Positions 6,540 to 30,747 of a DNA stretch of 64,000 bases are shown here, piece after piece. Both the position numbers and the translations under genes were made by a program. The stretch is from Verrucomicrobiota bacterium (lineage in GTDB: Bacteria > Verrucomicrobiota > Verrucomicrobiia > Limisphaerales > JACRJY01), in the NCBI GenBank assembly GCA_016235585.1, contig JACRJY010000023.1, forward strand, positions 30,560 through 94,559. The letters run 5' to 3'. The notes under the pieces are model-generated. The model was not told where the DNA came from. It was given only the letters and a program-made list of their open reading frames with translations, and searched no databases. How positions within the stretch are numbered: the stretch's first letter is position 1; the number at the start of each line of letters is the position of its first letter.

Positions 6540-7910
6540 TCACTTGGCTTTGTTTTTCTTCTTTTTCTTGGCGCCGGCGGCGGGCGCGTCCTCCTTGCCG
6601 TCGCGCAAATGTGCGGGGCGGGCGTCCTTGAACTGGTCGAGCGCAGCTTGAAGCCGCTTCGCGGCGGCGGCGGCTTCACCGGTGAGCGCCGCGACCTTGA
6701 GCGGACTCTTTTCGCCCAGATCCGCACGAAGGTCGAAGAAGTCCCCGGTGCGGTAGAGTTTGAAATCGCGGTTGAAAGCGCATTCACGAACCACTTTGTC
6801 CGCTCCCTGGCGCGGCGAATACCACGAGTAAATCCATTCGCGCGGACTGCCCTTTTCGCCGCGGAGCTGCGGGAGGAAACTGCGGCCATCCATCTTCAAA
6901 TCCGCCGGCAGCTTCACGCCCGCCGCGTCGCAGATGGTCGGCAAAATATCCGTGCTGTCCACAAGGTCGGCGCTGACCTTGCCGTCCGTAATTTTGCCCG
7001 GCCAGCTCGCGATGAGCGGCACGCGCATCCCAAAGGAAGTCGTCGCCCCTTTGCCGCCGATGACCACCTTGTCGCCCATCATCGAGCGCGTGCCCTTGCC
7101 CGTGCCGTTGTCGCCGAGAAAAATAAGGAGCGTGCTCTCGCGGAGGCCAAGCTGGTCGAGGCGCGCGACGAGTTTGCCGATGAGCTTGTCCATGTATTCC
7201 ACCATGTCGCCGAAGTTCGCGTCGGCCTTGTTCACGTTTTCGCCTTTGGCTTTCGGATCCCAGGTCTTGCTGTCCGGCGTGGGCTGATAGGGCGAGTGAG
7301 TGAGCATCATCGGGTAGTAGAGGAAGAACGGCTTGTCCTTCTGCCGCGCCACAAACTTCAGCGCGTAGTCGTTCACGAGGTCGGGGCCGTATTCGCCGTT
7401 AGTGTAGTCCTTCTCGACGCCGTTGATTTCGAGGCCGGCATTGGCGTAGCGCGGCGGGCGGCGCGTGTGCTGCCAGAGACAATGCTCGTCAAAACCATAC
7501 TTCTTCGGCAGCTCCGGATCCTGCCCCAGTTGCCATTTGCCGGTGATGCACGTCGCATAGCCAGCCTGCTTGAACAAGTTGCCGAACGTGACGGCCTTCG
7601 GATCCATGTTCCCGAAGTTGATATAGTTTCTCACGTTGTATTGCCCGGTCATCAACTGCACTCGCGTCGGCGTGCAGAGCGGCTGCACATAGCAGTGCTC
7701 GAACCGCGCGCCCGCCGCCGCGAGTTTGTCCAGCACGGGCGTCTTGTAGGAGGTGCCGCCATTCGCGCCGATGGTTTCATAACCGAGGTCGTCGGCCATG
7801 ATGACGATGACATTGGGCTGGCGCGCCGCGGCGGCAAGCTGGCCGCAAAGAACGCACAACAGCGCAAAGACGAATACCAGTCGGGCGGGCCAGTTGGATT
7901 TTTTGCTCAT
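6540..7910 (-). CDS. sulfatase (formylglycine-dependent, arylsulfatase A family), secreted
   Basis: 456 aa. Signal peptide [21 protein letters not shown]. Also [11 protein letters not shown] and the CxPxR maturation motif [12 protein letters not shown]. The C-terminus ends in [12 protein letters not shown]. Confidence 0.9.
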
Positions 7911-7936
7911 AAAAATTTTGCTGCCTTCGAGGTGAA

Positions 7937-9637
7937 CTATTTTTCCAGCCGCGTCACTTTCACGAAAAATGCGCCGGATAAATCCCGCCCTTCGGCGTCC
8001 TGGAACCAGGCGTGGAACTGCGCGCGGCCCTTCGGCAGTTTCACGCGAAAGACGGCCTCCCTCGCCCCCGCGACGGCTTTGGCCGTGAGTTCCTGCCCGG
8101 CAATGGCAAGCTTCGCGGCGGCGATGGGCAGCGCCTTGCCGGGCGGAGTGATGTTGCCGTCGAGCGCGGCGTCCAAATCGAACGGCCAGCGGCGCAAAAC
8201 GATTTCATATTCGCCCGCGCGCTCGATGTTCACATTCCACGGCCCGCCGCGTGGGCCGCCGGCGGCGTTGCGGATGTGATTGGCGTTGTCAGCGTAGGCG
8301 TCCTGCCAGTCGCTGCTGGTGAGCATAACGGGGTTCTCCGCCGCCGCGCCAAGGCTGATGGGAACAAAATCACGCAGGCGCGGTTCGACGCCGCTCCACC
8401 ACGCCTCATAACGGCGGCGCAAGTCGGCAACAAGCTTCGGATTCGCCGCCGCAACGTCGCGCTCCTGCGCGCGGTCAGCGCGAACGTCGTAAAGTTCGGT
8501 GCCGTGAACCAGCCGCCACTGGTTCCACAGCACGGCGCACTCGAACTTCTTCGGCCCGCTGGTGTCCGTCTGGCCAAAGCCGGGGCCAAACTGCACCACC
8601 AGCGTGCGGTCGGGCAATGCGTCAGCTTTGCCACGCAGCAGCGGCGCGAGGCTCACACCGTCGAAGTCCGGCCCGGCGGATTTTTTTACGCCGCAAAAAT
8701 CGAGAAGCGTCGGCAGCACATCCTGCACCTGCGTCAGCGCCGCCACGTCGCCCGGTGCGCGCAAGCCACCCGCCGGCCAGCGGACGAAGCACGGCACGCG
8801 ATGGCCGCCGTCATAATAAGTCACCTTGCCGGCGCGCAGACCGGCATTAAAAGCTTTCACGCCCGCCGTGCCCCCGTTGTCGGTGAGAAACATCACGATG
8901 GTGTTTTCGCGCAGACCGGAGTCGCGCAGAAACGCATCGAGCCGCCCCATGTTCTCGTCAATGTTCGCCATCATGCCGAAAAAATTCGCGGCTCCCTTGC
9001 CGGTGTAGGGCGCGCTGTATTTCTCCGGCACGGTGTGCGGCGTGTGCGCGGCGTGCAGCGGCAGGTAGCAGAAGAACGGCTCGGCCTTTGTCTTCCGCTC
9101 GCGCATCCACGTCATCGCCTCGTCGAAGCAGAAGTCGGTGAGGTAGCCGGGAAATTTTTCCTCCTTGGTGCCGCGCAACATCGTGCCGTTGAGGAGCGTG
9201 TTGGAAAATTCCGGCGCGCTGGTGAAGCCCCAGCCACGCGCCCACACGGCGGTCTGGAAGCCCTTGTCCGTCGGGCGATGCGGGTAGTTGTCGCCGAGGT
9301 GCCACTTGCCAAAAATCCCGGTGCGATAACCCGCCGCGCCAAACATCTGCGGCGCGGTGCCGAACTCCGGGCGCAAAAACGTCCGCCCCGCCGTGACGGA
9401 GGTGACGCCCGTGCGCAGCCCGTGGCAGCCGGTCATCAATTGCCCGCGTGTCGGCGAGCACATCGGCGCAACATGAAAATCCGTGAGCCGGACGCTCTCG
9501 CCGTGGAGCCGGTCAATGTTCGGTGTCTTGAGAAACGGATGTCCGTGGCAGCTAAAGTCGCCGTAGCCCGCGTCGTCCACCAGCACGAGGAGGACGTTGG
9601 GCGGGGCGGCGATGCCGGAAGCGCACAGCGCGAACAC
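7937..9637 (-). CDS. sulfatase with extra C-terminal domain; start codon uncertain
   Basis: [14 protein letters not shown] and the CxPxR motif [12 protein letters not shown]. The track's ATG at 9922 overlaps the upstream gene by 143 nt and encodes Arg-rich junk. There is no in-frame ATG near the signal peptide ([18 protein letters not shown]). Candidate starts are GTG at 9637 or TTG at 9778. Confidence 0.8.
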
Positions 9638-9656
9638 CAGCAGAGTGTTGAGACAA

Positions 9657-9772
9657 ATTCCGAAAACCGAAGCGCGAAGGCCGAAGGAATGCCGAAGCCC
9701 GAAGCCCGAAATCCGCGCCTTCGGGTTTCGGGCTTCGGTTTTGGTTCGGAATTCGGAATTCGGAATTCGATG
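9657..9772. repeat. ccgaa/ttcgg-rich imperfect long palindrome followed by GGAATTC heptamer x3
   Basis: The inner perfect stem is gaagcccgaaa ... tttcgggcttc. The outer arms are attccgaaaaccgaagc / gcttcggttttggttcggaat. At 9748-9768, ggaattc occurs three times in tandem, creating three EcoRI sites. Confidence 0.75.
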
Positions 9773-9779
9773 TTTCAAC

Positions 9780-11357
9780 TCATTCCGCCTTTCCCTTCTT
9801 CCGCTTCTCGTTGCGCTCGCGCTTCGGCGTGCCGGTCTCCAGTTTTTTCTGGAGTTCGCCCAGCTTCTCCGCCTCCTGCGCCTTGAGCCAGGTCTCGTAG
9901 CCCTTGGTGCGCCCGCCGACATATTTCAGCGCCTCGAAATCATCACCTTTGCCGAGCGCGCGCGGGTCGCCCTCCTCCTTCAAAATGTTCATCATCTGGT
10001 AACGCAGGTTTTCCACGGTCTCCTTGTGCGCAAGGTCGTGGGCGAGATTGTTGACGCACTCCGGGTCGCGGCGCAGGTCATACAGTTCATCGGGCAGGCG
10101 TTTGCCGAAGCACAGCTCGTAAAAATGCCCGCCCAGCAGCTTGATGACTTCCTTCGTCGGGCCGGGGTCGCAGTTGCCGAAATCCGTTTCGGGATTTCCT
10201 GCCGGCCAGCGCTCCGGGTGGAAGTTGTGGACGTAGAGAAAATCCTTCGTGCGAATCGCGCGCACGGGATAGCCGAGATCGTTCGGGCGGCCAATGTCGT
10301 GCCGCTCCTTGCCCGCGAGCATCACGTCGCGGTTCTCGATGAAGCCGGATTTTTCCGAGCGCAGGATGTTCACGAGGCTTTTGCCGGTCATCTGCGCGTG
10401 CGGCTTGAGGCCGGCCAGTTCCAGGTAGGTCGGCGCAAAGTCGCGCACGTTCACAAAATCCTCGACCACGCGGCCCGGCTTGATTACCCTGCCCCACCGC
10501 ATCGCCAGCGGCAGGTGAAAGGCGTCCTCGTGAATCTGCCCCTTCACAAAGGGGAACGGCATCCCGTGGTCGGACGTGACGATGATCAGCGTGTTCTCCA
10601 GTTCGCCGGAATCTTCGAGCAGCTTCAGCGCGCGGCCAATCTGCGCGTCGCCCCACTCGACCTCGACGGAGTAGTCCAGCAGATCGCGCCGGACGATTTC
10701 CGTGTCGGGGAAAAACTTCGGCACCTTCACGTCCTCCAGCTTCTTGCCGAGGCGCACGCCGGAGTTCCACTCGTAGGCCCGGTGCGGTTCGAAAAGACCC
10801 ATCCAGAACGAGAACGGCCTGCTCTTGTCGCGCTGCTTGAGGAACTCGCCGAAGTTGCCGGGATAATCGTTGCCATTGATGCCGGTGGCGATGGGCTGCT
10901 GCTTGAGCGCGTCAAAACTCGGCCCCGCCGGGTTGCGCGTGAACTTGGCCAGCGTCTTGAAATCGCCCGGCCCCCAGCCTTTGCCGGTGAGGCCGATGGT
11001 GTAGCCGGATTTCTCCAGCAGATCGGGATACACCGCGAAGCCCGCCGGAAAATAGCCGCCGTGCGAGACGGCCTCGTTGAGCTGCCAGGTGTTGCGCCCG
11101 GTGAGGATGCTCGCGCGGCACGGGCTGCACTTGGGGTTCGACGTGAAGGCGTTCTTGAACAGCACGCCCTCGCGCGCGACGCGGTCGAAGTTCGGCGTCT
11201 TGATCCACGTGCAGCCGTAGGCGCCCGCGTGCGTGCTGCCGTTCCAGTCGTCGAAGATGATGAAGAGGACGTTGGGGCGGGCCGCCGCAAGCGCGGGCGT
11301 GCCGGTGAAAACAGCCAGCACGACAAGCGCGGCCAGCAGGTGGTCAATCAGTTTCAT
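9780..11357 (-). CDS. sulfatase, secreted
   Basis: The ORF opens at 11396; the likely start is MKLIDHLLAALVVLAVFTG at 11357. Also VLFIIFDDW and CxPxR KCSPCRASILTGR. Lys-rich tail KRERNEKRKKGKAE. Confidence 0.9.
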   Translation of the reverse strand: MKLIDHLLAALVVLAVFTGTPALAAARPNVLFIIFDDWNGSTHAGAYGCTWIKTPNFDRVAREGVLFKNAFTSNPKCSPCRASILTGRNTWQLNEAVSHGGYFPAGFAVYPDLLEKSGYTIGLTGKGWGPGDFKTLAKFTRNPAGPSFDALKQQPIATGINGNDYPGNFGEFLKQRDKSRPFSFWMGLFEPHRAYEWNSGVRLGKKLEDVKVPKFFPDTEIVRRDLLDYSVEVEWGDAQIGRALKLLEDSGELENTLIIVTSDHGMPFPFVKGQIHEDAFHLPLAMRWGRVIKPGRVVEDFVNVRDFAPTYLELAGLKPHAQMTGKSLVNILRSEKSGFIENRDVMLAGKERHDIGRPNDLGYPVRAIRTKDFLYVHNFHPERWPAGNPETDFGNCDPGPTKEVIKLLGGHFYELCFGKRLPDELYDLRRDPECVNNLAHDLAHKETVENLRYQMMNILKEEGDPRALGKGDDFEALKYVGGRTKGYETWLKAQEAEKLGELQKKLETGTPKRERNEKRKKGKAE

Positions 11358-11402
11358 GGTGGGAGGTTGGATTGGAAAACAGCGCGGCTTCTTCATTTCC
11401 GC

Positions 11403-12503: not shown

Positions 12504-12558
12504 AGCTCAATGTTGCGGGTGCGGAGACGATGGGGCGGGGCGCGAAGTTACGCCAGCC

Positions 12559-13914
12559 TCAAACCTTGGCCTTCTTCTTGTTTTTCTTCTTCTCGTTCTT
12601 CGCTGCCTTGCGCTTCTCCTCGCCGTTCCAGCGCGCGTCCTCCCAGCGCGGGGGCTGCATCGAGGCGTTCCATTTGTCGAACAGCGACTGCAGTTCCTTT
12701 TTCTTCGCCGGGTTTTGCGCGGACAAATCCTTCCGCTCGCCGGGATCCTGCGCGAGGTTCACAAGCATCGGCTCCATGTCCTTGCCGGCCTTCACCAGTT
12801 TCCAGTCGCCGGAACGCACCGCGTGCTGCACGCCGAAGCGGAAGTAAAGTTCGCGCGGCGCGAGCTTGTCCACCTTGCCTTCGAGCAACGGGAGCAGATT
12901 CACGCCGTCAATCTGCCATTCGGGTTTCACCTCCGCGCCGGCCGCCGCGAGTGCGGTGGGCAGCACGTCGAGCTGAATGACCGGCTCGGTGGACACGCGC
13001 CCGCCGGGCACACGGCCTTTCCACGCGGCGATCCACGAGACGCGGATGCCGCCTTCCCAGCAAAACCACTTGCGCCCGCGCAGGCCGCCCACCTCGGCGG
13101 CGGCGGACGCGCCGCCGTTGTCGCTGATGAGGAAGAGGAGCGTGTTCTCCTCCTGCTTGCTCTCGCGCAGCTTTGCCAGCACCGCGCCGATGGCCTCGTC
13201 GGCCTCGGCCAGGTTCGCGGCGTAGTTTTGCAGCCCGCGGTCGAGGTGCTTGAACTTCTCCAGCCACTGCGGCGACGCGACGTGCGGCGTGTGGACGGCG
13301 TTGAACGACAGGTAAAGAAACCACGGCCTGCCTTTGCTCTGCTCGATGAAGTTCACCGACTCACGGGCGAACACTGGCGAGGTGATCGGCGCGCCGGGCA
13401 GTTCCTTCAACATCTCCTTGCCGCGATAGAACGACGACCCCTTGCCTTCGCCAAGATTGCCCACCGTGCCGACCGCGAAATCAAACCCGCGCGACGCCGG
13501 CATGAACTCCGGGCCCGTGTCGCCGAGGTGCCACTTGCCCACGATGCCCGTGGTGTAGCCGGCGGCCTTGAGCCGCTGCGCCATCGTCGTCTCGGTGAGG
13601 AGCAGCTCGCGCCCGGCCCGGGTCGGATTCGCGTCGTGGCCGGTGCGCGCCTGATAGCGGCCCGTCATCAAGCCCACGCGCCCCGGCGAGCACACGCAGC
13701 CCGACGAGTAGCCGTCGGTGAAGCGCACCCCGTTTTGCGCCAGCGAATCCATGTGCGGCGTGGGCGCGAGTTTGCCGCCATAGCAGCCCGGCTGCGCCCA
13801 GCCCATGTCGTCCACGTAGAAGATGAGGATGTTCGGCGGGGCTGGCTTCGCCGCGTGAAGCGCGGCCAGTGGAGCGAACAGAATCGAAATGATCAGTGCG
13901 AGGCTGTGCTTCAT
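12559..13914 (-). CDS. sulfatase, secreted
   Basis: The ORF opens at 14037; the likely start is MKHSLALIISILFAPLAALHA at 13914. Also ILIFYVDDMGW and CxPxR VCSPGRVGLMTGR. Tail EEKRKAAKNEKKKNKKKAKV. Confidence 0.9.
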   Translation of the reverse strand: MKHSLALIISILFAPLAALHAAKPAPPNILIFYVDDMGWAQPGCYGGKLAPTPHMDSLAQNGVRFTDGYSSGCVCSPGRVGLMTGRYQARTGHDANPTRAGRELLLTETTMAQRLKAAGYTTGIVGKWHLGDTGPEFMPASRGFDFAVGTVGNLGEGKGSSFYRGKEMLKELPGAPITSPVFARESVNFIEQSKGRPWFLYLSFNAVHTPHVASPQWLEKFKHLDRGLQNYAANLAEADEAIGAVLAKLRESKQEENTLLFLISDNGGASAAAEVGGLRGRKWFCWEGGIRVSWIAAWKGRVPGGRVSTEPVIQLDVLPTALAAAGAEVKPEWQIDGVNLLPLLEGKVDKLAPRELYFRFGVQHAVRSGDWKLVKAGKDMEPMLVNLAQDPGERKDLSAQNPAKKKELQSLFDKWNASMQPPRWEDARWNGEEKRKAAKNEKKKNKKKAKV

Positions 13915-14059
13915 GAATGTTTGGATAGCGGTTATTTCGCGCCGGGGCCAACAAATTCTTCGCGGGTCAGCTTGCCGCACTCGCGCGCATCTGAAAATGG
14001 CGCCGACAGCCTGCGGTTTCCCTCTTTGCCTTTCCATGGCGGGCGTTTACCATGGCCGC

Positions 14060-16402
14060 ATGATTTCCCGCTGGACACGGCTCGCGCTGGCACTGGCCGC
14101 GCTGGCTTTTGCCACACCTGCGGCCATCGCCGCACCGCAGAAGGAATACGGACGCGTTGAACTGATCCGCGACACCTGGGGCATCCCCCATGTGTTCTCG
14201 GCGACGGACGCGGGCGCGCTCTACGGGCTGGGCTGGGCGACTGCGGAAGAGCGCGGGTTTCAGATGACCTACAACCTGCGCATCATCCAAGGCCGGCTCG
14301 CGGAAATCATCGGCGATCGGCCGCGCGGCAGCCGCACGGAGACGACGGTGGATCACGACCGCAAGATGCGCACCTTCGGCTGGACGCCCGCCGCCGCGCG
14401 CACGGCGGCGCGGCTCGACGTTCCCACGCGCCAGCTGCTGGAGGCGTATTGCGAAGGCGTGAACGACAGTTTCGCGGCGCAGCGGGCGGCGGGCAGTTTG
14501 CATCCGTTGTTTCAATCGTTGAACGTCGCGCCGGAAAAGTGGACGCCCGCCGACTGCCTCTTGAGCTGGTGGCATCTCGCGCAATTCTTCGCGACCGACG
14601 GCACGCGCGATCTGCTCGCGGGGCGCAACCGCGCCAGTCCGCGCCCCGGCCAGCCGTCGCCGCCGCGCTCGACGGCGGCCTGGCTGGACGACGAAGCCGC
14701 GGTCGTGCAGCGCGCCGACGTGAACGATGCGTGGCTGCGGCGCGTGGAGGAGTTCCGCTCCACGCACGCGCTCGGTAAACCGGGCACCAGTGGTGCGGGG
14801 CCGAAATTCAGCCACGCCTGGGTGGTCGGCGGAAAAAAGACGACGACCGGTTCGGCGGTGCTGGTGAGCGACCCGCAGACGCCTGTGCGCAATCCGTCGC
14901 TGTGGATGGAATTCCACGTCAGCGGAAAAACCTTCGACGCGCGCGGCATCGGCGTGCCGGGCAGTCCGGCGTTGTTGATCGGATTCAACCGCCGCGTGGC
15001 GTGGGGACTGACGGCGCTGGGCGCAGATCAGGCGGACTTGTTCCGGCTGGAAACCGACCCGCAACGCCCGGACGAATACCGCTGGGACGGTCAGTGGCGG
15101 AAAATGGCGGCGCGCACCGAGCGCATCAAAGTGAAGGACGGCGCGGACGTGGAGTTGACAGTGCGGGAGACGCATCTGGGGCCGGTCACGTCGGCGTTTT
15201 GTTTCCGCCAATCCGGTGATCCAGAAGTGGCGCTCAAGCGCGTGCCGATGTGCGAGCCGGAGCGCGACACCATCACCGCCGGGCTGGCCATGATGCGCGC
15301 GCGTGACGCCGGGGAATTCACCGAGGCGCTCGCCGGCTGGCGGTTTCCCACCGCGAACTGCGTTTATGGCGACGTGGGCGGGCACATCGGCTACGCGGTC
15401 GTGGGCGCGATTCCGATCCGCTCAAAGCACGCGCCGGACGCGAACGGCAGCGAGGCGGCACCCGGCACGGGCCACGCGCATGACTGGCGGGGATTCGTGC
15501 CGGCGGAACTGCTGCCGCGCGCCTTCGATCCGAAGGCCGGCGTGCTGTTGAGCGCGAACCACCGTCCGGTCGCGTCCTTCTATCCGGTTCCGCTCGGCAT
15601 CAGCACCGGCTCGATGGGCGACACCATTCGCTCGTGGCGGCTGCGTGAGTTGCTGGGCGCGCGGCAGAAATTCACGCCGACGAATGTGCTGGAGGTTCAT
15701 TACGACACCGTCAATCCGGCGCGGCGCGAAATCGCGCGCCTCGGCCTGCACCTGCGCGACACGCAGCAGGGCGAATTTTCCAGGGAGGCCATGAACGCGC
15801 TCGTCGTGCTGGAGAAATGGCTCAAGGCCGGCGCGAGCAGTGACTTGCGGGCGGACGGCGCGGAACTGGCGGTGCGCGTCAGCACGTTCTTCCGCTTCGT
15901 CGCGACGCCGCTGGCCCTGAAATTCGGCGGCGGCGAATCCGGCCTCGCGCGCTTTCTCAAGGACAGCGCGAAACGGATTGCGGCTGATCCCAAGGCTGTC
16001 TTCGGCGAGGACGAACGCCGCTTCATCAACACGGTTCTCGGCGACGCCTGGCGCGAGCAGCAGGCGTCCGGGGCCACGCCGCGCGGGACGCTGGGCTGGT
16101 TTGACACGCTCGACGGCTTCGGCTCGCTGGACACGGCGCAAGACCTGCCGCCACCCGGCATCACCTGTCTCGACGGCCAGACGATCCACTCGCAGGCCGC
16201 GCAGTCCTACACGCAATGGGTGCCGCTGCACGACGTGGACGCCGCCCAGGCCCTCTGCCCCATCGGACACAGCGACCGCCCCGGCGGTCGTTACCGCACG
16301 AGCACGATGCCGCTGTGGGCCGGGGCGAAACTGCATTCCGCCCCGCTGGGCCGCAAGGCCGTGGAGAAAATAGCCGCTGAACGGATCGTGCTCTCGAAGT
16401 GA
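14060..16402 (+). CDS. penicillin acylase / acyl-homoserine-lactone acylase family Ntn hydrolase, secreted
   Basis: The ORF opens at 13889; the likely start is MISRWTRLALALAALAFATPAAIA at 14060. Also IRDTWGIPHVF and the putative autoproteolytic nucleophile FSHAWVVGGKKTTTGSAVLVSDPQ. Confidence 0.8.
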   Translation: MISRWTRLALALAALAFATPAAIAAPQKEYGRVELIRDTWGIPHVFSATDAGALYGLGWATAEERGFQMTYNLRIIQGRLAEIIGDRPRGSRTETTVDHDRKMRTFGWTPAAARTAARLDVPTRQLLEAYCEGVNDSFAAQRAAGSLHPLFQSLNVAPEKWTPADCLLSWWHLAQFFATDGTRDLLAGRNRASPRPGQPSPPRSTAAWLDDEAAVVQRADVNDAWLRRVEEFRSTHALGKPGTSGAGPKFSHAWVVGGKKTTTGSAVLVSDPQTPVRNPSLWMEFHVSGKTFDARGIGVPGSPALLIGFNRRVAWGLTALGADQADLFRLETDPQRPDEYRWDGQWRKMAARTERIKVKDGADVELTVRETHLGPVTSAFCFRQSGDPEVALKRVPMCEPERDTITAGLAMMRARDAGEFTEALAGWRFPTANCVYGDVGGHIGYAVVGAIPIRSKHAPDANGSEAAPGTGHAHDWRGFVPAELLPRAFDPKAGVLLSANHRPVASFYPVPLGISTGSMGDTIRSWRLRELLGARQKFTPTNVLEVHYDTVNPARREIARLGLHLRDTQQGEFSREAMNALVVLEKWLKAGASSDLRADGAELAVRVSTFFRFVATPLALKFGGGESGLARFLKDSAKRIAADPKAVFGEDERRFINTVLGDAWREQQASGATPRGTLGWFDTLDGFGSLDTAQDLPPPGITCLDGQTIHSQAAQSYTQWVPLHDVDAAQALCPIGHSDRPGGRYRTSTMPLWAGAKLHSAPLGRKAVEKIAAERIVLSK

Positions 16403-16428
16403 AAAGATGGCGTTGGTTGCCCGCCCCG

Positions 16429-16562
16429 GTAGCGCAGGATGGCATCCTGCTGTTTCGCCGGTTGGCAACCGGCCGGGGCCGTGAAATTGCGAAGAGATTT
16501 CGCTGGCCGGGGTGTTGGCCGACTGCCAGTCGGCGAAACAGCAGATTGCCAATCTGCGCTAC
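16429..16562. repeat. 134-nt dyad-symmetric element with four perfect 17-nt palindromes, between convergent genes
   Basis: The palindromes are gcaggatGgcatcctgc (16434-16450), gccggttGgcaaccggc (16457-16473), gccgactGccagtcggc (16518-16534) and gcagattGccaatctgc (16541-16557). The outer flanks are gtagcgc / gcgctac. Confidence 0.85.
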
Positions 16563-16602
16563 GCCGTCAGCCCGGTCATTTTGAAGACATGCCCTAACAA
16601 TG

Positions 16603-17988
16603 TTACTTCCCCGTCTTCGCCTTCTTGCGCTTCTGCTTTTTCCCCGGCGTGGCGGGATCGCCCTCGGTCGTGCCGGGCGCGATGTTGCGGGTGTTCCAGC
16701 GGTCCCACTGCGCCTGCAACTCCTTCACCTTGTCGGGCAGCGACGCGGCGAGGTCGCGCGTTTCGCCAAGGTCGTCGCGCAGGTTGTAGAGCTTGGCGGC
16801 GGTCGCGCCCTGGTTGCGCCCGCCGGTGAGCGTGTCGGCGTTCGTGTCGTAGCGGACAAGCTTGAAATCCCCGGCGCGGATGGCCGTCTGCTCGCCGAAG
16901 CGCCAGAAAAGCGCGTCGTGCGGCGCGCCGGATTTTTCGCCGGCGAGGAACGGAAGCAGATTCACTCCGTCGAGTTTCCAATCCGGTTTCACCTCAAGCC
17001 CGGCGGCGGCGAGCGCGGTCGCGGTGAGGTCGAGTTGAATTGCCGGCGGCGCGAAGACGCCGGGTTTTACTTTGCCGGGCCATGACACGACGAACGGCAC
17101 GCGCACACCGCCTTCGAGCGTGGTGCGCTTGCTGCCGCGCAACGGCTTGTTGACCGAGCCGTTGACGGTGACGCCGGGCATCGTCGGCCCGCCATTGTCG
17201 CTGATGAAGGTGACGAGCGTGTTCCGCTCCTGGCCGGTCTCGGCGAGTTTTTTCCGCACCGCGCCGATGGCCTCGTCCATCGCGAGCATCATCGCGGCAT
17301 AGGTGCGGCGGGTCTTGTCCGTGATGCTCGCAAACTTCTTGAGTCGCGCGTCGTCGGCATGCATCGGCGTGTGGACGGCGTTGAACGCAAGATAGAGAAA
17401 CCACGGCTGGCCCTGATGCTTCTCGATGAACGCCACCGCCTCGCGCCCGAACGCGTCGGTCAGATACTCCTTCTCGTTCGCCGGCTCGGTGCCGCGCAGG
17501 ATGCCGGACGACTCGAAATAACTGTGCGCGCCGCCGAGGAAGCCGAAGAACTCCTCGAAGCCGCGCTTCTGCGGATGCTGCTCCGGCTTCGCGCCAAGAT
17601 GCCACTTGCCGACCATGCCGGTCTTGTAACCCGCCGCCTTGAGCCGGTCGGGCAACGTGGTTTCCGTCAGCGGCAACCCGCCGCCCGCGCCGCCGGAGTT
17701 GAACTCGTGCCCGAAGCGTTGCTGATAGCGGCCCGTGAGCAGCCCCGCGCGCGTCGGCGAGCAATACGGCCCGCTCACGTAGCCGCTGGTGAAGCGCACG
17801 CCCGCCGCCGCGAGCGCATCAAGGTTCGGCGTGGGAATGTCCTTGCACCCATGGAAGCCCACGTCGGCATAGCCCATGTCGTCGCCGACGATGATGAGGA
17901 TGTTGGGCCGCTTCGCCCCGGCGGCGGAAGCGTGGTCGCAAAGAATGCAAAGCGACGCCAGAAAGCCGAAGATAAGTGATTTGCTCAT
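16603..17988 (-). CDS. sulfatase, secreted
   Basis: The ORF opens at 18309, but that upstream stretch is encoded by intergenic repeats. The likely start is MSKSLIFGFLASLCILCDHASA at 17988. Also ILIIVGDDMGYAD and CxPxR YCSPTRAGLLTGR. Tail PGKKQKRKKAKTGK. Confidence 0.9.
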   Translation of the reverse strand: MSKSLIFGFLASLCILCDHASAAGAKRPNILIIVGDDMGYADVGFHGCKDIPTPNLDALAAAGVRFTSGYVSGPYCSPTRAGLLTGRYQQRFGHEFNSGGAGGGLPLTETTLPDRLKAAGYKTGMVGKWHLGAKPEQHPQKRGFEEFFGFLGGAHSYFESSGILRGTEPANEKEYLTDAFGREAVAFIEKHQGQPWFLYLAFNAVHTPMHADDARLKKFASITDKTRRTYAAMMLAMDEAIGAVRKKLAETGQERNTLVTFISDNGGPTMPGVTVNGSVNKPLRGSKRTTLEGGVRVPFVVSWPGKVKPGVFAPPAIQLDLTATALAAAGLEVKPDWKLDGVNLLPFLAGEKSGAPHDALFWRFGEQTAIRAGDFKLVRYDTNADTLTGGRNQGATAAKLYNLRDDLGETRDLAASLPDKVKELQAQWDRWNTRNIAPGTTEGDPATPGKKQKRKKAKTGK

Positions 17989-18051
17989 ACGGTGCGCTGC
18001 TAGACCGGCATGGCTGGGGAAAGGTTTCAGATCGAATTCCGAAAACAGCGT

Positions 18052-18540: not shown

Positions 18541-18547
18541 AATTTCG

Positions 18548-25012: not shown

Positions 25013-25080
25013 TTTGAGGTGGGGTTCTCATAACAAATCCCCCGCCGGTGCGCCATTCATTTTTCGTCAGCCCCAAGTCG

Positions 25081-25232
25081 GGGGAGCACACCCGCCCCGG
25101 GTGTGGCGGGATGCGCCCTCGCATCCTGCCCCGTGGCGCGAACCATGGCCGTGAAAATTTTGTATGGTTTCGGGCCACGCCGGGTTTTCCGCGAGGGCGC
25201 GGAAAACTGCACGCGAGGCGCGTGCGCTCCCC
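25081..25232. repeat. compact 152-bp copy of the GGGGAGCGC-TIR element
   Basis: It runs ggggagcacacccgccccgggtgtggcgggatgcgccctcgcatcc ... ttttccgcgagggcgcggaaaactgcacgcgaggcgcgtgcgctcccc. Its reverse complement aligns to 18052-18115 (about 95% over 60 nt) and to 18495-18540 (2 mismatches in 46). Confidence 0.8.
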
Positions 25233-25246
25233 GCTCGGCTTCGGGT

Positions 25247-26851
25247 TCAGTTCTTCGCCGCCGCCTTTTTCTTCGCGCCTTTCGGTGCCGCCTTGTCGGC
25301 GGGCGCGCCGCTGGCAACCGGCACGTCGTTCGTCTGTGCCGGGCCGGGCGTGCTGCGACCATCGCGCTGGTATTTTTCCAGCAGCGCCTTCAGCTCGCGC
25401 ACCTTGCCGGGCTGGTCGGCGAAGTGATTATGCCGCTGGGCAACATCTTCACGCACGTTGAACAACTCGCCGGGCGCAGCGGACTTCGCGTAGCCGCGCT
25501 GCTCCTTGAGCCACGGCGGTTCGCCACGCGCGCCGTTGTCGTCGCCGGTCGGCGCGTCAATGAGCACCCAGTCGCCCTTGCGGATGGCGAACTTCCCCGA
25601 AGCCGCGTGATGCACGGTCGCCTCGCGCAATGGCTTCGGATACGGCTCGCCAAGAAAAACCGGCAGCAGGCTGTAGCTGTCCGGCGCGGCAGAGTCGGGA
25701 AGTTTCGCGCCGAGAATCGCCGCGACCGTCCGCATGAAATCCACGTGGCAGATGGTTTCGCCGCTCACCGCGCCCGCTTTGATTTTCCCCGGCCAGCGTG
25801 CGAGGAACGGCACGCGATGGCCGCCCTCCCAGAGGTCGCGCTTCGCGCCGCGCAGTTCGCCCATGCTCCAGTGCTGGAACTGCGTCACCCGGTCATACGC
25901 GCCGGGGTTCACTTCGCCGGTGATTTCCGGGCCGTTGTCGCTGGTGAAGATGACGAGCGTGTTGTCGGCAACCCCGCTGCGCTGGAGCGCGGCGAGCACC
26001 TGTCCTGCCGTCCAGTCGGTCTGAACGACAAAATCACCAAAATCCCCTGCCCCGCTCTTCCCCTTGAACTCCGGCGCGGGCACCACCGGAAAGTGCGGCG
26101 ACGTGAGCGGGAAATAGAGGAAGAACGGCTGGCCCGACTTCGCCGAATCCTCGACCCACTTCACCGCGCGCTTCGTCAACTCCGGCAGAATGTTCACCAG
26201 CTTCCAGCCGGGCAGCATCGGGCCGGGGATGTTGAACTGCTCATCGCGTCCGCCCTCGCGCACCGACGGGATGCCGACGGTGCGGTCGTTCTCGATAAAG
26301 CAATACGGCGGGTAGTTCGGCACTTCGGTGCCGAAGTAGTAATCGAAGCCGCGCGTGGTCGGGCCGTCGGTCACGGGCTTCGAGAAATCCACGTTGCTCA
26401 TTGGATTCGTCCGGCCCGAGGGCGGCTGGCCGTCCTTTGTCGCCCACGTCCAGCCGAGGTGCCACTTGCCGATGGCGGCGGTCGCGTAACCATGCTGCTT
26501 GAGCAGCGTCGCGACCGTGAGCCGGTCGGGTGCGATGAGCGGCGGGGAATACGGGCCGAGCACATTGCGCTGAAGCCGCGTGCGCCACGAGTAGCGGCCC
26601 GTGAGCAGCGCGTAGCGCGTCGGCGTGCAGACCGAGTCGGGCGAATGTGCGTCGGTGAAGCGCATTCCCTCGCGCGCGAGTTCGTCAAGATGCGGCGTGG
26701 GGATTTTGGAATCCTTGTTGTAGCAGCCGAGGTCGCCGTAGCCGAGGTCGTCGGCGAGGATGAAGACGATGTTCGGCTTCGCGGCGTCGGCCAACCACGG
26801 AAGACACAGAAGACACGGAAGGAGGAGGCGGAGAAATGATTTTGGGTTCAT
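25247..26851 (-). CDS. sulfatase, secreted
   Basis: 534 aa. Starts MNPKSFLRLLLPCLLCLPWLADA. Also IVFILADDLGYGD and CxPxR VCTPTRYALLTGR. Tail AAPKGAKKKAAAKN. Confidence 0.9.
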   Translation of the reverse strand: MNPKSFLRLLLPCLLCLPWLADAAKPNIVFILADDLGYGDLGCYNKDSKIPTPHLDELAREGMRFTDAHSPDSVCTPTRYALLTGRYSWRTRLQRNVLGPYSPPLIAPDRLTVATLLKQHGYATAAIGKWHLGWTWATKDGQPPSGRTNPMSNVDFSKPVTDGPTTRGFDYYFGTEVPNYPPYCFIENDRTVGIPSVREGGRDEQFNIPGPMLPGWKLVNILPELTKRAVKWVEDSAKSGQPFFLYFPLTSPHFPVVPAPEFKGKSGAGDFGDFVVQTDWTAGQVLAALQRSGVADNTLVIFTSDNGPEITGEVNPGAYDRVTQFQHWSMGELRGAKRDLWEGGHRVPFLARWPGKIKAGAVSGETICHVDFMRTVAAILGAKLPDSAAPDSYSLLPVFLGEPYPKPLREATVHHAASGKFAIRKGDWVLIDAPTGDDNGARGEPPWLKEQRGYAKSAAPGELFNVREDVAQRHNHFADQPGKVRELKALLEKYQRDGRSTPGPAQTNDVPVASGAPADKAAPKGAKKKAAAKN

Positions 26852-26866
26852 AGAGGGCAGAGGGTG

Positions 26867-28186
26867 CTATTCGGCGACGGCCACGGGCCGCGAGTTTTTG
26901 GCGAGGTCGGCGCGGAGGGAGTCGGCCAGCTTCAGCAGGCGGGCCACCACGTCGGGATTCTTCTCCGCGACATCGGCGGTTTCGCCGAGGTCAGCGTCGA
27001 GGTTGAATAGTTGCGGCGGCGGCTTGAGGTGAAGTTTCCACGGGCCCGAGCGGATGGATTCGAGGCGGTTGGTATTGTAGCCGTAAAGCGAGTAGAACGA
27101 TTCACGCGGCGAGCGCGCGCCCGGCACGCCGAGCAGCAGCGGCGAAAAATCTTTCCCGTCAATCACCCGGTCGGTGGGCGCATATCCGCCTGTGAGCCGC
27201 GCGAGCGTGGGCAGCACGTCGAGGCCGGTGACGAACTCGTGGCAGACCGCGCCCGCCGGCACGCGCCCCGGCCACCACGCGAGAAACGGCACGCGCAGGC
27301 CGCCCTCGAACACGGTGTGTTTCGTGCCGCGCAGCGGCCCCGCCGAGCCGGGCGTCTTGCGTTCCGGCCCGTTGTCGCTGGTGAACAGCACGAGCGTTTT
27401 CTTGTCGAGACCGAGCGTGCGGAGGCGGTCGAGGATTTGCCCCGTGCTCCAGTCCAGTTCCTCCACCACGTCGCCGTAAAGTCCGGCGGCGGACTTGCCC
27501 TTGAACGGCGGCGAGGCATCGAACGGCAGGTGCGGCATCTGGTGCGAGAGAAACAGGAAGAACGGCTCCGCCTGTTTCGCTTCGATGAACTTCAACGCCT
27601 CGGTGGTGTAGCTTTGCGTCATCTTCGCAGGATTTGCGGGCCGCTCGATGACCGTGTCGCCGCGCAGCACGGGCATTCCGCCCTCCTTCTCGAACACGAC
27701 CACTTCCGGCTTGTCCAGGTTGTGCAGCACGCCGAAGTAGCTGTCGAAGCCCTGCTCCATCGGTCGCATCCCACGCTGAAAGCCGAGATGCCATTTGCCA
27801 ATCATGCCCGTAGCGTAGCCGCGCGATTTGAACACCTCCGCCAGAGTAATTTCGTCCGGGTGCAACCCCTTCTTCGCATCGGGCCGCAGCACGCCTTCCG
27901 CCAGCCCCACGCGCCCCGGATAACACCCCGTCATCAGCGCCGCGCGCGACGGCGTGCAGAGCGCCGCCGCGACCGAGTAATCCGTGAAGCGCATCCCCTC
28001 GCGCGCCATGCCGTCGAGGTTGGGCGTTTTGATTTTTTCCGCGCCGTAACTGCCGAGGTCGCCGTAGCCCAAATCATCGCAGAGGATGAGAATGACGTTG
28101 GGGCGCGGCGCGGCAGGCGCGGCGGATGCCAGCCACGGCGAACATAGAAGGATAATTGTCAGGAGTCGTTTCATGTCAGTCATCAT
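26867..28186 (-). CDS. sulfatase, secreted
   Basis: 439 aa. Contains MKRLLTIILLCSPWLASAAP, VILILCDDLGYGD and CxPxR LCTPSRAALMTG. Confidence 0.9.
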   Translation of the reverse strand: MMTDMKRLLTIILLCSPWLASAAPAAPRPNVILILCDDLGYGDLGSYGAEKIKTPNLDGMAREGMRFTDYSVAAALCTPSRAALMTGCYPGRVGLAEGVLRPDAKKGLHPDEITLAEVFKSRGYATGMIGKWHLGFQRGMRPMEQGFDSYFGVLHNLDKPEVVVFEKEGGMPVLRGDTVIERPANPAKMTQSYTTEALKFIEAKQAEPFFLFLSHQMPHLPFDASPPFKGKSAAGLYGDVVEELDWSTGQILDRLRTLGLDKKTLVLFTSDNGPERKTPGSAGPLRGTKHTVFEGGLRVPFLAWWPGRVPAGAVCHEFVTGLDVLPTLARLTGGYAPTDRVIDGKDFSPLLLGVPGARSPRESFYSLYGYNTNRLESIRSGPWKLHLKPPPQLFNLDADLGETADVAEKNPDVVARLLKLADSLRADLAKNSRPVAVAE

Positions 28187-28240
28187 GGCGTGGCGTGAAC
28201 GCCCCGGCCAACCGCGCGCGCCATGCCGGGGGTTGCATCG

Positions 28241-29470
28241 TCAGCGGCTGTTCCATGTCGTGTTCGGCTTCTTCCAAAGAATGCGCGCGGCGAACACGGC
28301 GTTGTCCGATCCGTATTTCATGCACTGCGTGTAGTCGGCGTAGTTCGGCGGATTGGTCTGCATCCATTCCGCGTCGGTGACCCAGGTTTCGTTTTCATTC
28401 ACCTCGGTGACGCCGAAGTTGCCGAGCTTCGCGCCACGTTGCGGCATCAGCTCGCGCTCGGTGCTGCGAATCACGTGCAGTTTCTTGGCGTCAACTTGAG
28501 CGATGAACAACGGCGCGCGGTTCCGGGGAATATGATCATTGTTCGCGCCCCGCCGCGTGTAGCAGAGGAACAGCGCATCGTCGTGCGTGACCCAGTGCGC
28601 CTGCGTGTTGTAGCTGCCGAGGTCGGTGCCGTCGTCCCACGTCCACGATTTGAGCGGGCCGTAGTTCAAGCCGTCGGCGCTGGTGGTCACGAAGGCCTGT
28701 TGATCGTGGCGGATCGTGAGGTAGTAGCGCCCTTTGAACCGGGCGAGCGACGGCTCGTGCAGCCCGCGCTCCACGTCCACGCGCAGCTCGTTCCCGATTT
28801 CCTTCACCGACAGCCGCCGCCCGTCGAAGCCGCAGCGCAGCACCACCACGCGCGAGGTCGTCTCGCCCTTGGGGGTGAAGTAAATCGGCAGCAGAATGTC
28901 GCCATCCGGGAGATCAACGCGTTGCACGCTGCCTGCGCCGGCGTTGTGAAAACGGTTCGTGTCCGGCACCGCCAGCGTCTCCCACGCCGTCCAGTTACGC
29001 GCGCCAGGATCGTAGATGGAGAACACCGTCTCCCGCGCGCGCACGCGCATGACCTTGTTGTCCTGATAACGCACGTCGTGCCCGATGCCGAGCAGCTTGC
29101 CCGATTTCGCGTGCCACTTGGGCCAGAAGTCCGACGGCGTGACCGTGACGCGCCCCGGCTCCTCACGCGGCCCCAGCGTGCGCGCGTGCTCCACCGGCCC
29201 CGACCATGTCTTGCCGAAGTCGTCGGAGCGCATCTCGTTGAGCGGATCGAAAATGTCGCTGCCCACGAGCGCGGCCTTGTTCATCGTCAACACGATCTTC
29301 GGCACCGCGCCGGGAATCGCGCCCGCGCGCGGATGCACCCAGCAGGATTTTTTGTCGAAGCCGGTGCTGATCGTGTCGAGCTTGAGATCGAAGCCGGGTG
29401 GCTCGGCGGCGTGAAGCAACGCAACTGAACCAAACAACAGGGAGGCAAGGAGGAGTCGGGGTGTGTTCAT
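28241..29470 (-). CDS. secreted sialidase-superfamily (BNR/Asp-box) beta-propeller protein, paralog 1
   Basis: The ORF opens at 30181, but that upstream stretch is Arg-rich shadow. The likely start is MNTPRLLLASLLFGSVALLHA at 29470 (in frame, 409 aa). Asp-box SDDFGKTW, a second degenerate box SADGLNY, and the conserved block YTRRGANNDHIPRNRAPLFIAQV. Confidence 0.7.
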   Translation of the reverse strand: MNTPRLLLASLLFGSVALLHAAEPPGFDLKLDTISTGFDKKSCWVHPRAGAIPGAVPKIVLTMNKAALVGSDIFDPLNEMRSDDFGKTWSGPVEHARTLGPREEPGRVTVTPSDFWPKWHAKSGKLLGIGHDVRYQDNKVMRVRARETVFSIYDPGARNWTAWETLAVPDTNRFHNAGAGSVQRVDLPDGDILLPIYFTPKGETTSRVVVLRCGFDGRRLSVKEIGNELRVDVERGLHEPSLARFKGRYYLTIRHDQQAFVTTSADGLNYGPLKSWTWDDGTDLGSYNTQAHWVTHDDALFLCYTRRGANNDHIPRNRAPLFIAQVDAKKLHVIRSTERELMPQRGAKLGNFGVTEVNENETWVTDAEWMQTNPPNYADYTQCMKYGSDNAVFAARILWKKPNTTWNSR

Positions 29471-29499
29471 CAGTTCGTGGAGTGCAGTTTTGATTTCCG

Positions 29500-30747
29500 T
29501 CACCTCACCGGCGCGGAGGTCGCAGCGCCGGCCGGCCTGAGCTTGTTCGGCTTCGACCAAAGAACGCGGGCGACGAAGGTGGCGCCCTCGGCGCCGCGTT
29601 GCTTCGAGTCCTTCATGAACATGCCTTCGGAAACGGTGACCCACGATTCGCGTTCGCTGATCGCGCACGCGCCGAAGTTGCCCATCTCCGCGCCGCGCTC
29701 GGGCACGACGACCTTTTCGGTGGCGCGCATCACGCGCAGTGTCGTCGGGCTTACCTGCGCCATGAACAGCGGTGCGCGATGGCGCACGATGTGGTCGTTG
29801 TTCGCGCCGCGCCGGGTGTAGATGAGGAAGAGGCCGTCGCTGTGCGCGAGCCAATGCTGCTGCGTGTTGTAGCTGCCGAGTTCCGCGCCGTCGTCGAAAA
29901 GCCACGGCTGCGGCGCGGCGAACTGCAATCCATCCTCGCTTACGCTGACGTAGCCGCGCACATCGTTGCGCAGCGTGAGAAAATAGCGGCCGTGAAACGC
30001 GATCAGCGACGGCTCGTAAAATCCACGCGCCACGTCGAGCCGCAACACGTTTCCATTGCGCACGAAGGTGAGTTTCGCACCATCGAACCGGCACTCGGAG
30101 ACGGTGGTGCTGTAGCGATCCTTGGCGCTCCTGCCGATGTAGAGCGGCACGAGCAGTGTGCCGTCGGGCTTCACGAGCCACTGCGCGCAGGCGTTGCGGG
30201 CGAAATTGAACTGCTCGTCATCGGGCAGTTCCAGCACCTGCCACGGCGTCCAGCGTTCCGTCTTTGGATCGAAGATCGCATAGACTGTCTGATGCGCGCG
30301 CTTCACGTCGTCAAGTTGCTTCCCTTGCGGGCTGTAGCGGACCTGGCAACCGATAGCGAGGAGCTTGCCCGTCGGCGCGTGCCAGCCGGGCGTGACATCC
30401 GCCACGCTGATCGTCACGCCATCCGATTGCTGCCGCCAATCCAGTTCCGGCGGCAAAGTCGGCCCCGTCCACGGCGCCGTCGGCGACTTGCGCATCATCA
30501 CATGGAGGCCGGAGTAGTAGTCTGATATTTTGAGATGCTTCTGAATCGTCATCACGACGGTTGGCTCGCCGCCGGTGCGCGAAGGAATGGCGGCCGCGCG
30601 CGGATGAAACCACAGGAACTTCCCGTCATCGTGTTTCATCACCGTCTCCAGCTTGACGGTGAACTCGACCGGGGCGGGTGCGGCGGCAGCAAGGACGGCC
30701 AACGGAGCCAGCAGCAGCGCGGTGAGGGTGACGGTCGTGATTCTCAT
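29500..30747 (-). CDS. secreted sialidase-superfamily beta-propeller protein, paralog 2
   Basis: The likely start is MRITTVTLTALLLAPLAVLAAA at 30747. It is collinear with paralog 1 (GSYNTQQHWLAHSDGLFLIYTRRGANNDHIVRHRAPLFMAQV), but its Asp-boxes are degenerate (SEDGLQF). Confidence 0.7.
   Translation of the reverse strand: MRITTVTLTALLLAPLAVLAAAAPAPVEFTVKLETVMKHDDGKFLWFHPRAAAIPSRTGGEPTVVMTIQKHLKISDYYSGLHVMMRKSPTAPWTGPTLPPELDWRQQSDGVTISVADVTPGWHAPTGKLLAIGCQVRYSPQGKQLDDVKRAHQTVYAIFDPKTERWTPWQVLELPDDEQFNFARNACAQWLVKPDGTLLVPLYIGRSAKDRYSTTVSECRFDGAKLTFVRNGNVLRLDVARGFYEPSLIAFHGRYFLTLRNDVRGYVSVSEDGLQFAAPQPWLFDDGAELGSYNTQQHWLAHSDGLFLIYTRRGANNDHIVRHRAPLFMAQVSPTTLRVMRATEKVVVPERGAEMGNFGACAISERESWVTVSEGMFMKDSKQRGAEGATFVARVLWSKPNKLRPAGAATSAPVR

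Follow-up and report, generated by a model that had tools for sequence, protein, structure and literature searches.

The window analysed here, a stretch of 64,000 nt (~64% G+C) from a groundwater Verrucomicrobiota metagenome-assembled genome (MAG), holds seven sulfatase genes within 24 kb (positions 6540-30747) and none in its other 40 kb. We propose that the secreted enzymes of this region form a loose, lineage-specific cluster that would strip a sulfated, probably O-acetylated, acidic glycan, a reading to which we give slightly more credence than to its negation. It is not one conserved island. An initial annotation of the same DNA had described a single 24-kb island, and this description did not hold: the region, with genes on both strands, breaks up into at least four transcription units, an adhesin-like gene of 6.5 kb lies inside it, and its composition is not conserved around orthologues of its genes. 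Gene order suggests instead two operon-level modules, P2-P1-S7-S6 and S4-Est-S3 (P, propeller; S, sulfatase; Est, esterase; Table 1), which are plausible and likely real operons, together with bystanders.

Taken as a whole, this is an ordinary sulfated-glycan degradation cluster, routine in the phylum and not conceptually new. Its only unusual feature is the pair of proteins P1 and P2, which are sialidase-shaped and lack the usual catalytic tyrosine.

Seven diverged formylglycine-dependent sulfatases

All seven sulfatases match PF00884 with 118-226 bits (cutoff 25), and their best PDB matches are many solved S1 sulfatases. Each contains one canonical C-x-P-x-R motif followed by L/M/I-(L)TG, all are of the Cys type, and in the translations an N-terminal metal-binding DD pair precedes CxPxR by 30-45 residues in 7/7. 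The fold and the signature of type I (formylglycine-dependent, S1) sulfatases are therefore present in every one of them. The initial annotation had spoken of seven secreted sulfatases with intact motifs; the number and the motif are borne out, and secretion is suggested by signal-like N-termini that were recognised by visual inspection in six of the seven. In S2, no ATG, GTG or TTG start is found just upstream of the hydrophobic signal-like segment, and no conventional one between this segment and the hairpin that lies before the gene; the sole in-frame ATG, at 9922, overlaps S3 and reads through the hairpin.

Pairwise identities among the sulfatases are 25-36%, with the exception of S4 and S5 (48%), which indicates diverged subfamilies and not recent duplicates. 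With all identities in the range of 25-48%, the idea that the cluster arose by recent tandem duplication was rejected. Nearest solved structures and pairwise identities spread the seven over at least four clades. The initial annotation had set unrelated subfamilies against its island, and several different subfamilies were indeed found.

The subfamily labels used here denote similarity to the nearest solved structure and not a curated SulfAtlas placement. Predicted in this way, S5 as a member of S1_19 is the best subfamily fit of the seven (6prm, an exo-4S-kappa-carrageenan sulfatase, 2e-101; 9hh3, 'family S1-19', 3e-88) and is convincing, as is S6 as a member of S1_15 (6s20, a GalNAc-6-O-sulfatase, 1e-77, followed by 9bas, S1_15A, 1e-66). 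The predicted fits of the other five are weaker (1e-37 to 2e-75): S1 is nearest to 9fo1, a kappa-carrageenan sulfatase of S1_16 (1e-51), S2 to 6prm, here as an exo-4S-kappa-carrageenan S1 sulfatase (3e-50), S3 to 9bb9, of S1_8A (1e-37), S4 again to 6prm (4e-72), and S7 to human arylsulfatase A (2e-75), an enzyme that removes galactose-3-sulfate. The S1_8A enzyme is a galactose-2-sulfate sulfohydrolase, S1_15A/B are galactose-6-sulfate sulfohydrolases, and the 6s20 enzyme is BT3333 of Bacteroides thetaiotaomicron (PMC12549532). Since the nearest characterised relatives all act on galactose or GalNAc at O2, O3, O4 or O6, a heavily sulfated galactan- or GalNAc-containing glycan is suggested, though not proved, as the substrate.

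Gene organisation of the sulfatase region

The genes of the first module are separated by 29, 54 and 15 bp (P2-P1-S7-S6) and those of the second by 55 and 6 bp (S4-Est-S3); the gaps flanking the adhesin-like gene measure 234 and 559 bp. A scan for sigma-70 promoters found no more than shuffled sequence would yield, so the operon boundaries proposed here rest on spacing and strand only. The sole long-stem site in the terminator scan is the hairpin between S3 and S2, which is possibly a terminator, an attenuator or an element resembling a repetitive extragenic palindrome (REP). A heptamer repeat, (TTCGGAA)x3.6 at 9745-9769, flanks this hairpin.

Table 1. Features in and next to the sulfatase region of the window (ORF, open reading frame)
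Feature	Positions	Strand	Evidence and remarks
AraC-family regulator	5619-6503	+	outside the region; HTH_18 3.7e-23, HTH_AraC 1e-14, Cupin_2 1e-4 (weak cupin-like N-terminus)
S1 sulfatase, 456 aa, CTPTR	6540-7910	-	PF00884 2.6e-50; signal-like N-terminus
S2 sulfatase, CSPTR	~7937-9640	-	PF00884 1.5e-46; extra C-terminal domain of ~190 aa; start codon uncertain
Hairpin, perfect 17-bp stem, GC-rich	9699-9738	.	S3-S2 intergenic
S3 sulfatase, 538 aa, CSPCR	9780-11396	-	PF00884 8.5e-34; SGSH_C 4e-17
Est, alpha/beta-hydrolase esterase, 366 aa	11403-12503	-	BD-FAE 2.2e-23; Abhydrolase_3 6e-11; GGSAG serine motif
S4 sulfatase, 451 aa from M42 of the ORF, CSPGR	12559-13914	-	PF00884 1.3e-54
Penicillin-amidase-family Ntn hydrolase, ~780 aa	~14060-16402	+	PF01804 5.7e-141; signal-like N-terminus
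S5 sulfatase, 461 aa from M108 of the ORF, CSPTR	16603-17988	-	PF00884 8.9e-67
Adhesin-like repeat protein, 2154 aa	18548-25012	-	Big_9 6.8e-11; weak DUF5122 and Cadherin_5
S6 sulfatase, 534 aa, CTPTR	25247-26851	-	PF00884 3e-57
S7 sulfatase, 439 aa, CTPSR	26867-28186	-	PF00884 8.3e-62
P1 propeller, 409 aa, MBI5772509.1	28241-29470	-	sialidase fold; paralogue of P2
P2 propeller, 415 aa, MBI5772510.1	29500-30747	-	sialidase fold; first gene of P2-P1-S7-S6

As the initial annotation had stated, neither a formylglycine-generating enzyme (FGE) nor an anaerobic sulfatase-maturing enzyme (anSME) is found in the window: no such Pfam domain occurs in any large ORF, and no FGE motif in the six frames. 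The only radical-SAM CxxxCxxC motif of the window belongs to QueE, encoded beside P2 (TIGR04349, 9e-78); this gene was considered as an anSME and rejected, given its match to the QueE model and the lack of a SPASM motif. Sulfatase maturases are usually encoded singly elsewhere, and B. thetaiotaomicron uses one anSME for all of its sulfatases. An unlinked maturase is thus the normal arrangement and no anomaly, and what had been presented as a puzzle is none; a missing transporter is likewise usual for clusters of this phylum. We also agree that no Pfam domain of a canonical glycoside hydrolase or transporter is present in the window, yet P1 and P2 are obvious glycosidase candidates. No TonB-dependent receptor, Plug or SusD domain was found in any large ORF of the window, which thus lacks the adjacent SusC-like and SusD-like genes of a polysaccharide utilization locus (PUL) of the Bacteroidetes type.

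P1 and P2 have a sialidase fold

P1 and P2 are paralogues (44% identical, E 4e-110); each is 100% identical to its NCBI entry (Table 1), where it is annotated as 'exo-alpha-sialidase'. Neither has a Pfam (E<=0.01), NCBIfam or PDB sequence match, and Pfam BNR_2 is not reached. Relatives of the two score BNR_2 below its gathering threshold (21-31 bits vs 31.4), and some P1 orthologues bear a precomputed BNR_2 assignment. The structure of P2 predicted with AlphaFold2 (AF2) from a 51-sequence alignment has a pLDDT of 91.3 and a pTM of 0.88. Among the top 50 PDB matches of this model in Foldseek, nearly all are sialidases, trans-sialidases, KDNase, pseudaminidase or sialidase fusion and design constructs, with a TM score of ~0.6 and 10-14% identity to GH33 sialidases; a further match is 5hx0, an uncharacterised Dyadobacter protein. 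Searched against the PDB, the family profile matched almost only sialidases (best 4.7e-6).

Comparison by hhalign with the BNR_2 protein of one orthologue locus (L002) gave 50% probability in the Asp-box region only. This protein and its BNR_2+GDSL neighbour are non-canonical, having no RIP motif, and a true GH33 NanH alignment was therefore used, which aligned with the family at 95% probability across family residues 82-300. The proteins are six-bladed beta-propellers with an Asp-box, S-x-D-x-G-x-T-W at family columns 105-112, intact in P1 (SDDFGKTW) and degenerate in P2. The assignment of two propellers to the sialidase superfamily, already made in the initial annotation, is thus supported at the level of the modelled fold and of the profile, and at that level only.

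The family to which P1 and P2 belong is large, uncharacterised and Verrucomicrobiota-centred. It counts >3,300 proteins at E<=0.001 (90% clusters) or, at the same threshold, 850 representatives at 50% identity, and P1 has 3,526 homologues at E<=1e-50. Orthologues of P1 and P2 that are 70-90% identical occur across many MAGs and across families of Verrucomicrobiota. In many members of the family the propeller is fused to an SGNH/GDSL esterase; a fusion to a BD-FAE esterase also exists, and M23+PKD or GH18-like segments are occasional partners. A literature search returned nothing relevant for Dfer_1899 or for a characterised propeller family of the P1/P2 type.

Catalytic residues of the propellers

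Several of the residues on which sialidases rely have counterparts in the columns of the 51-sequence family alignment. R69 (39/51) adjoins the RIP arginine in HMMER alignments and is the putative equivalent of the first Arg; D95 (45/51) aligns to the acid/base Asp, E264 (50/51) to the conserved Glu and R279 (51/51) to the second Arg. The third Arg falls on R341 only in a forced, low-confidence global alignment, R331 and R343 being alternatives. In the same forced alignment the 'GYS' segment that holds the nucleophile falls on G378-A379. Conservation within the family is highest in the C-terminal third (blades 5-6), which carries the motifs SYNTQQHW, YTRRGANNDH, RHRAPLF and PERGAxLGNFG and has no confident alignment to sialidases.

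According to the secondary structure prediction, blade 6 opens with a strand that begins at G375-N376-F377-G378 (N conserved in 50/51 sequences, F in 47/51), followed by V, A or I at 379. No Tyr lies within +/-3 residues of this G-N-F-G in the 51 sequences, in a C-terminal alignment of low confidence, so the Tyr that defines retaining GH33 catalysis was not found. The initial annotation had raised the possibility that the sialidase-like proteins lack catalytic residues; the outcome is mixed, since the equivalents of Arg, Asp and Glu are kept and the nucleophilic Tyr is absent, and the full GH33 set of Tyr/Glu and acid/base Asp is therefore incomplete.

The family has invariant residues of its own (Y329, T330, R331, R341, R343, R260, H317, E363 and Q315-Q316-H317-W318), all of which are retained in both P1 and P2. 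As read from the alignment, they indicate a well-defined, strongly cationic site. P1 and P2 might thus stand for an undescribed glycoside hydrolase family, or for a novel mechanism (inverting or Tyr329-dependent, for example, or that of a lyase), whose target would be an acidic sugar, ulosonic or sulfated, at the terminus of glycans or glycolipids from the environment; this proposal is tentative, and we would sooner expect it to fail than to hold.

Neighbourhoods of propeller orthologues

To place the propellers in context, 86 P2-orthologue loci were fetched (±10 kb), and neighbours were clustered on 82 non-redundant loci (L006-L086); neighbour counts were made from separate representatives and checked by Pfam. 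The best 80 orthologue loci all come from freshwater or groundwater MAGs of Verrucomicrobiota type, some of them filed under other names. Several records, L013, L019, L020 and L037 among them, hold clearly verrucomicrobial orthologues (77-82%) under the names of Akkermansia muciniphila, Klebsiella pneumoniae, Bifidobacterium sp. or Proteobacteria, and are probably mislabelled public bins.

Around these orthologues, the gene content of the window is mostly not reproduced. A second propeller occurs in one of the 86 loci and an esterase homologue in two; acylase, AraC, QueE and adhesin homologues occur in none. One P2 orthologue (84%) lies among GH20, BNR_2, AXE1, a Kelch/NanM-like protein and a BNR_2+GDSL protein, and one P1 orthologue (89%) among BNR_2, an HpcH/HpaI aldolase, AXE1, SDR and a Kelch protein that matches NANM faintly. 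At another locus, P1 and P2 orthologues stand together with an aldolase, AXE1, GFO/IDH/MocA, an enolase-superfamily protein and an aldo-keto reductase, and in Prosthecobacter the orthologue has an MFS transporter, an aldolase and oxidoreductases as neighbours. Across the 82 loci, the recurrent neighbours besides the ceramidase-like gene discussed below are DUF1501 (27), GFO/IDH/MocA (18), BD-FAE (12), lactonase (11), AXE1-like (9) and BNR_2 (8). The presence of AXE1, Kelch/NanM-like proteins, HpcH aldolase, SDR and GFO/IDH/MocA beside orthologues points to a context of sugar-acid release and catabolism. Thus, the context of the propeller family fits the release and catabolism of an acidic, O-acylated sugar and not a dedicated partnership with sulfatases.

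One gene cluster recurs (L010/L002, L144 and L145). It consists of a BNR_2 sialidase-like gene, an HpcH/HpaI aldolase, AXE1, a P1/P2-type propeller, SDR and a Kelch/NanM-like gene, together with two small ORFs (~170-190 aa), and looks like an uncharacterised locus for the release and catabolism of acidic sugars.

Among the specific neighbours of P2 orthologues, a neutral/alkaline-ceramidase-like gene (PF04734, 52-61 bits) is the most frequent, found at 31 of the 82 loci and directly adjacent, mostly co-directional, in 16. This raises the possibility that the cluster serves glycolipid catabolism, the sialidase-fold proteins, the cerebroside-sulfatase-like S7, the esterase and the acylase together dismantling sulfated or acidic molecules of glycosphingolipid type. 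Human arylsulfatase A as the nearest structure of S7 would suit this idea, as would the presence in the window of a different fatty-acyl-amide hydrolase family (PF01804) in place of the ceramidase. However, the window contains no ceramidase-like gene (PF04734), its acylase is encoded on the other strand, at a distance of 12 kb from the propellers, and accompanies them at none of the 86 loci, and the six other sulfatases point to galactan- or glycosaminoglycan-type substrates. Moreover, the bacterial ceramidase-like proteins are putative ceramidases. We consider glycolipid catabolism very improbable.

Esterase, acylase, AraC gene and adhesin-like gene

Est, a putatively secreted enzyme, has PDB relatives among the HSL-family esterases (~1e-10) and in the bifunctional GH43-CE enzyme 6mly. 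It had been described as an EF-hand esterase, of which the esterase stands and the EF-hand does not: a single N-terminal 12-residue EF-hand-like loop, DANQDGVLTEAE, fits the consensus, no second motif forms a pair with it, and EF-hand_5 reaches only E 0.15 (12 bits vs a cutoff of 25.9). Sulfatases, which are non-orthologous, adjoin four of the six closest Est orthologues in metagenome contigs (52-74% identity).

The prediction of an N-terminal-nucleophile (Ntn) hydrolase of the penicillin/acyl-homoserine-lactone acylase family is confirmed over the full length of the profile, with 472 bits across positions 2-675 of the 675 of PF01804. A segment 'FSHAWVVGG', read from the translation and not by alignment, occupies the place of the acylase G-S-N-x-W, and the similarity to PvdQ is weak (6e-22, 77 bits vs an equivalog cutoff of 950). 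The gene is on the + strand, divergent from S4 and convergent with S5, while all the other genes of the region are on the - strand, and no homologue was found at the 86 propeller-orthologue loci or at 57 esterase-related loci. It is probably a bystander.

The presence of an AraC regulator at the edge of the region was confirmed; its membership in a common unit was not. It gave no equivalog-level NCBIfam match. An implied model of the initial annotation is a single regulon, in which this AraC protein would sense a breakdown product and activate the whole 24 kb for one polysaccharide. AraC-type regulators commonly control carbohydrate catabolic operons, and the AraC/cupin gene does lie directly beside S1, the last sulfatase. 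The two genes are nevertheless convergent and not divergent, with 36 bp between their stop codons and hence no shared promoter region; no AraC homologue occurs near any of the 86 P2-orthologue or 57 esterase-related loci, and the genes of the region, which lie on both strands, fall into at least four transcription units. Such a regulon is improbable.

The adhesin-like protein begins with ~850 aa of propeller-like repeats, continues with about 12 Big_9/cadherin-like repeats of ~100 aa ('VNDAPTL') and is secreted. Its 6.5-kb gene takes up 27% of the region, which it splits mid-way, and no homologue lies near the propeller orthologues at the 86 loci. The initial annotation had left out this gene, as well as the opposite strand of the acylase and the convergence of AraC and S1. 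Most likely none of the three (acylase, adhesin-like protein and convergent AraC gene) is a component of the cluster, and they only adjoin it.

Comparison with known systems

Clusters dense in sulfatases but devoid of SusC/D and of a linked maturase typify Verrucomicrobiota and Planctomycetota, among them specialists for sulfated methyl-pentose and fucoidan (PMC8857213). Our cluster shares several traits with them: its many Cys-type S1 sulfatases, diverged and secreted, lie with esterase and glycosidase candidates, SusC/SusD and a linked maturase are lacking, and the phylum is Verrucomicrobiota. It differs by the absence from the window of a classical glycoside hydrolase (GH29, GH95, GH141, GH107 and others), which leaves the sialidase-fold proteins as its sole glycosidase candidates, and by its groundwater instead of marine origin.

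The cascades of Pseudoalteromonas for carrageenan and other sulfated galactans (S1_19, S1_16, S1_8 and S1_15; PMC12549532; 6prm, 9fo1, 9bb9, 9bas) hold the nearest solved relatives of S1-S6, as a close second in the case of S6. In these cascades position-specific exo-sulfatases act in sequence, and by analogy the seven sulfatases may do so as well. The similarity is at the level of family or subfamily only (1e-37 to 1e-101), S7 is arylsulfatase-A-like, and organism and habitat differ. Furthermore, the partners of the cascades (GH16, GH82, GH150, GH110, GH2 and GH127) are not found in the window.

P1 and P2 resemble GH33 sialidases (NanH of Clostridium perfringens and of Salmonella typhimurium, and the enzyme of Micromonospora viridifaciens) in the six-bladed propeller, the Asp-box and, by profile alignment, the equivalents of the first and second Arg, the Asp and the Glu; we count the O-acetyl-esterase-type domains and NanM-like Kelch proteins that accompany the family as a further likeness. 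They differ in an identity of only 10-14%, in blades 5-6 that are not confidently alignable, in G-N-F-G at the position of the Tyr, in their own invariants and in not reaching BNR_2.

Bacteroidetes PULs for sulfated host glycans (B. thetaiotaomicron; 6s20, 7oze, 7p26) offer another parallel, S6 being closest to 6s20 and the association of sulfatases with sialidase-like proteins and an esterase resembling mucin O-glycan degradation. Unlike them, the window has no SusC/D pair, no hybrid two-component or extracytoplasmic-function (ECF) regulator and none of their glycoside hydrolase families, and the phylum and the organisation of the envelope are different.

Other features of the window

Two long + strand ORFs, at 11-1990 and 2024-3469, are rich in Arg, Gly, Ala and Leu, have no family matches and are probably shadow ORFs; in the second, only a C-terminal zinc-ribbon-like part (CPNC...CPSC) resembles a real gene. 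A 3494-aa ORF at 35313-45797 (+) contains SBBP beta-propeller repeats and Big_9, cadherin-like and FG-GAP domains. GC skew is strongly negative there (-0.15 to -0.18), and AT skew is positive.

Tandem repeats of 7 nt lie within three consecutive + strand housekeeping genes: (TCTCCAA)x4.6 at 31092-31123 in queE, (TCAAAAC)x4.3 at 32779-32808 in a class-III aminotransferase gene and (TCAAAAC)x3.7 at 33513-33538 in ksgA; the repeat next to the S3-S2 hairpin is the fourth of the kind. The three ORFs remain open across the repeats, which encode, for example, 'NSKLKTQNS'. Slippage would change the reading frame, since seven is not divisible by three. The pattern AAACTCAAAACTCAAAA has 5 occurrences against 0.01 expected.

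Discussion

Several results weigh against a glycan-stripping cluster. Any sulfatase at all was found within 10 kb in only 17 of the 86 P2-orthologue loci, which is about chance for a sulfatase-dense genome, and the sulfatases near P2 orthologues are almost never orthologous to those of the window, the exceptions being an S1 orthologue (81%) at 4 kb from the P2 orthologue in L013 and one S6-like gene (55%). No classical glycoside hydrolase, lyase or transporter is present to complete the pathway. S2 is without a convincing start codon, the subfamilies and the substrate are deduced through relatives that are only ~30-45% identical, and with the GH33 nucleophile Tyr absent from the propellers, a glycosidase activity is not assured.

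The region might also be a chance neighbourhood, made up of independent units with different substrates in a very sulfatase-dense genome, in which case the 24-kb island would be merely a label. The mixed strands, the adhesin gene and the 559-bp gap within the region would be expected from this, and so would the dispersal of the sulfatases over several clades. Conserved synteny is also lacking around P2 orthologues: the acylase, AraC, adhesin and QueE genes are never found there, and orthologues of P1 and P2 usually lie in sugar-acid clusters free of sulfatases. Chance accounts less well for the confinement of all seven sulfatases of the window to 24 kb, and the spacing of 6-55 bp inside P2-P1-S7-S6 and S4-Est-S3 argues for co-transcription. 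Est orthologues, moreover, recur beside sulfatases, and in the closest lineages (L015, L020, L022 and L037) co-directional runs of 2-4 sulfatases follow the P2 orthologue. In L146/L147, two sulfatase genes and one for a TonB-dependent receptor flank a P1 orthologue. We therefore regard a chance neighbourhood as unlikely, while taking it seriously.

If the region is instead a loose, lineage-specific cluster for a sulfated, acidic glycan, its enzymes could act as follows. For maturation to the formylglycine form, the seven Cys-type sulfatases would depend on an FGE or anSME gene in another part of the genome. In the module P2-P1-S7-S6, the two sialidase-fold proteins, as candidate exo-glycosidases, would be paired with a sulfatase resembling arylsulfatase A and a 6-O-sulfatase similar to S1_15. 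The module S4-Est-S3, which possibly continues through the hairpin into S2-S1, would contribute a carbohydrate-type esterase along with S1_19/S1_16-like and S1_8-like sulfatases, and S5 would be a stand-alone unit. Est may take off O-acyl groups, each sulfatase may desulfate a different position of terminal galactose- or GalNAc-type residues, and P1 and P2 may free a terminal sugar that is anionic, being sulfated or of the 2-keto-3-deoxy/ulosonic type.

To conclude, the cluster is a further example of the sulfatase-rich machinery that makes Verrucomicrobiota specialists of sulfated glycans, here in groundwater, and it bears on the cycling of carbon and sulfur. If P1 and P2 are active, they would bring an unrecognised acidic-sugar activity into the turnover of carbon in freshwater and groundwater. 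If they are not sialidases, thousands of 'exo-alpha-sialidase' annotations in the databases would be misleading.

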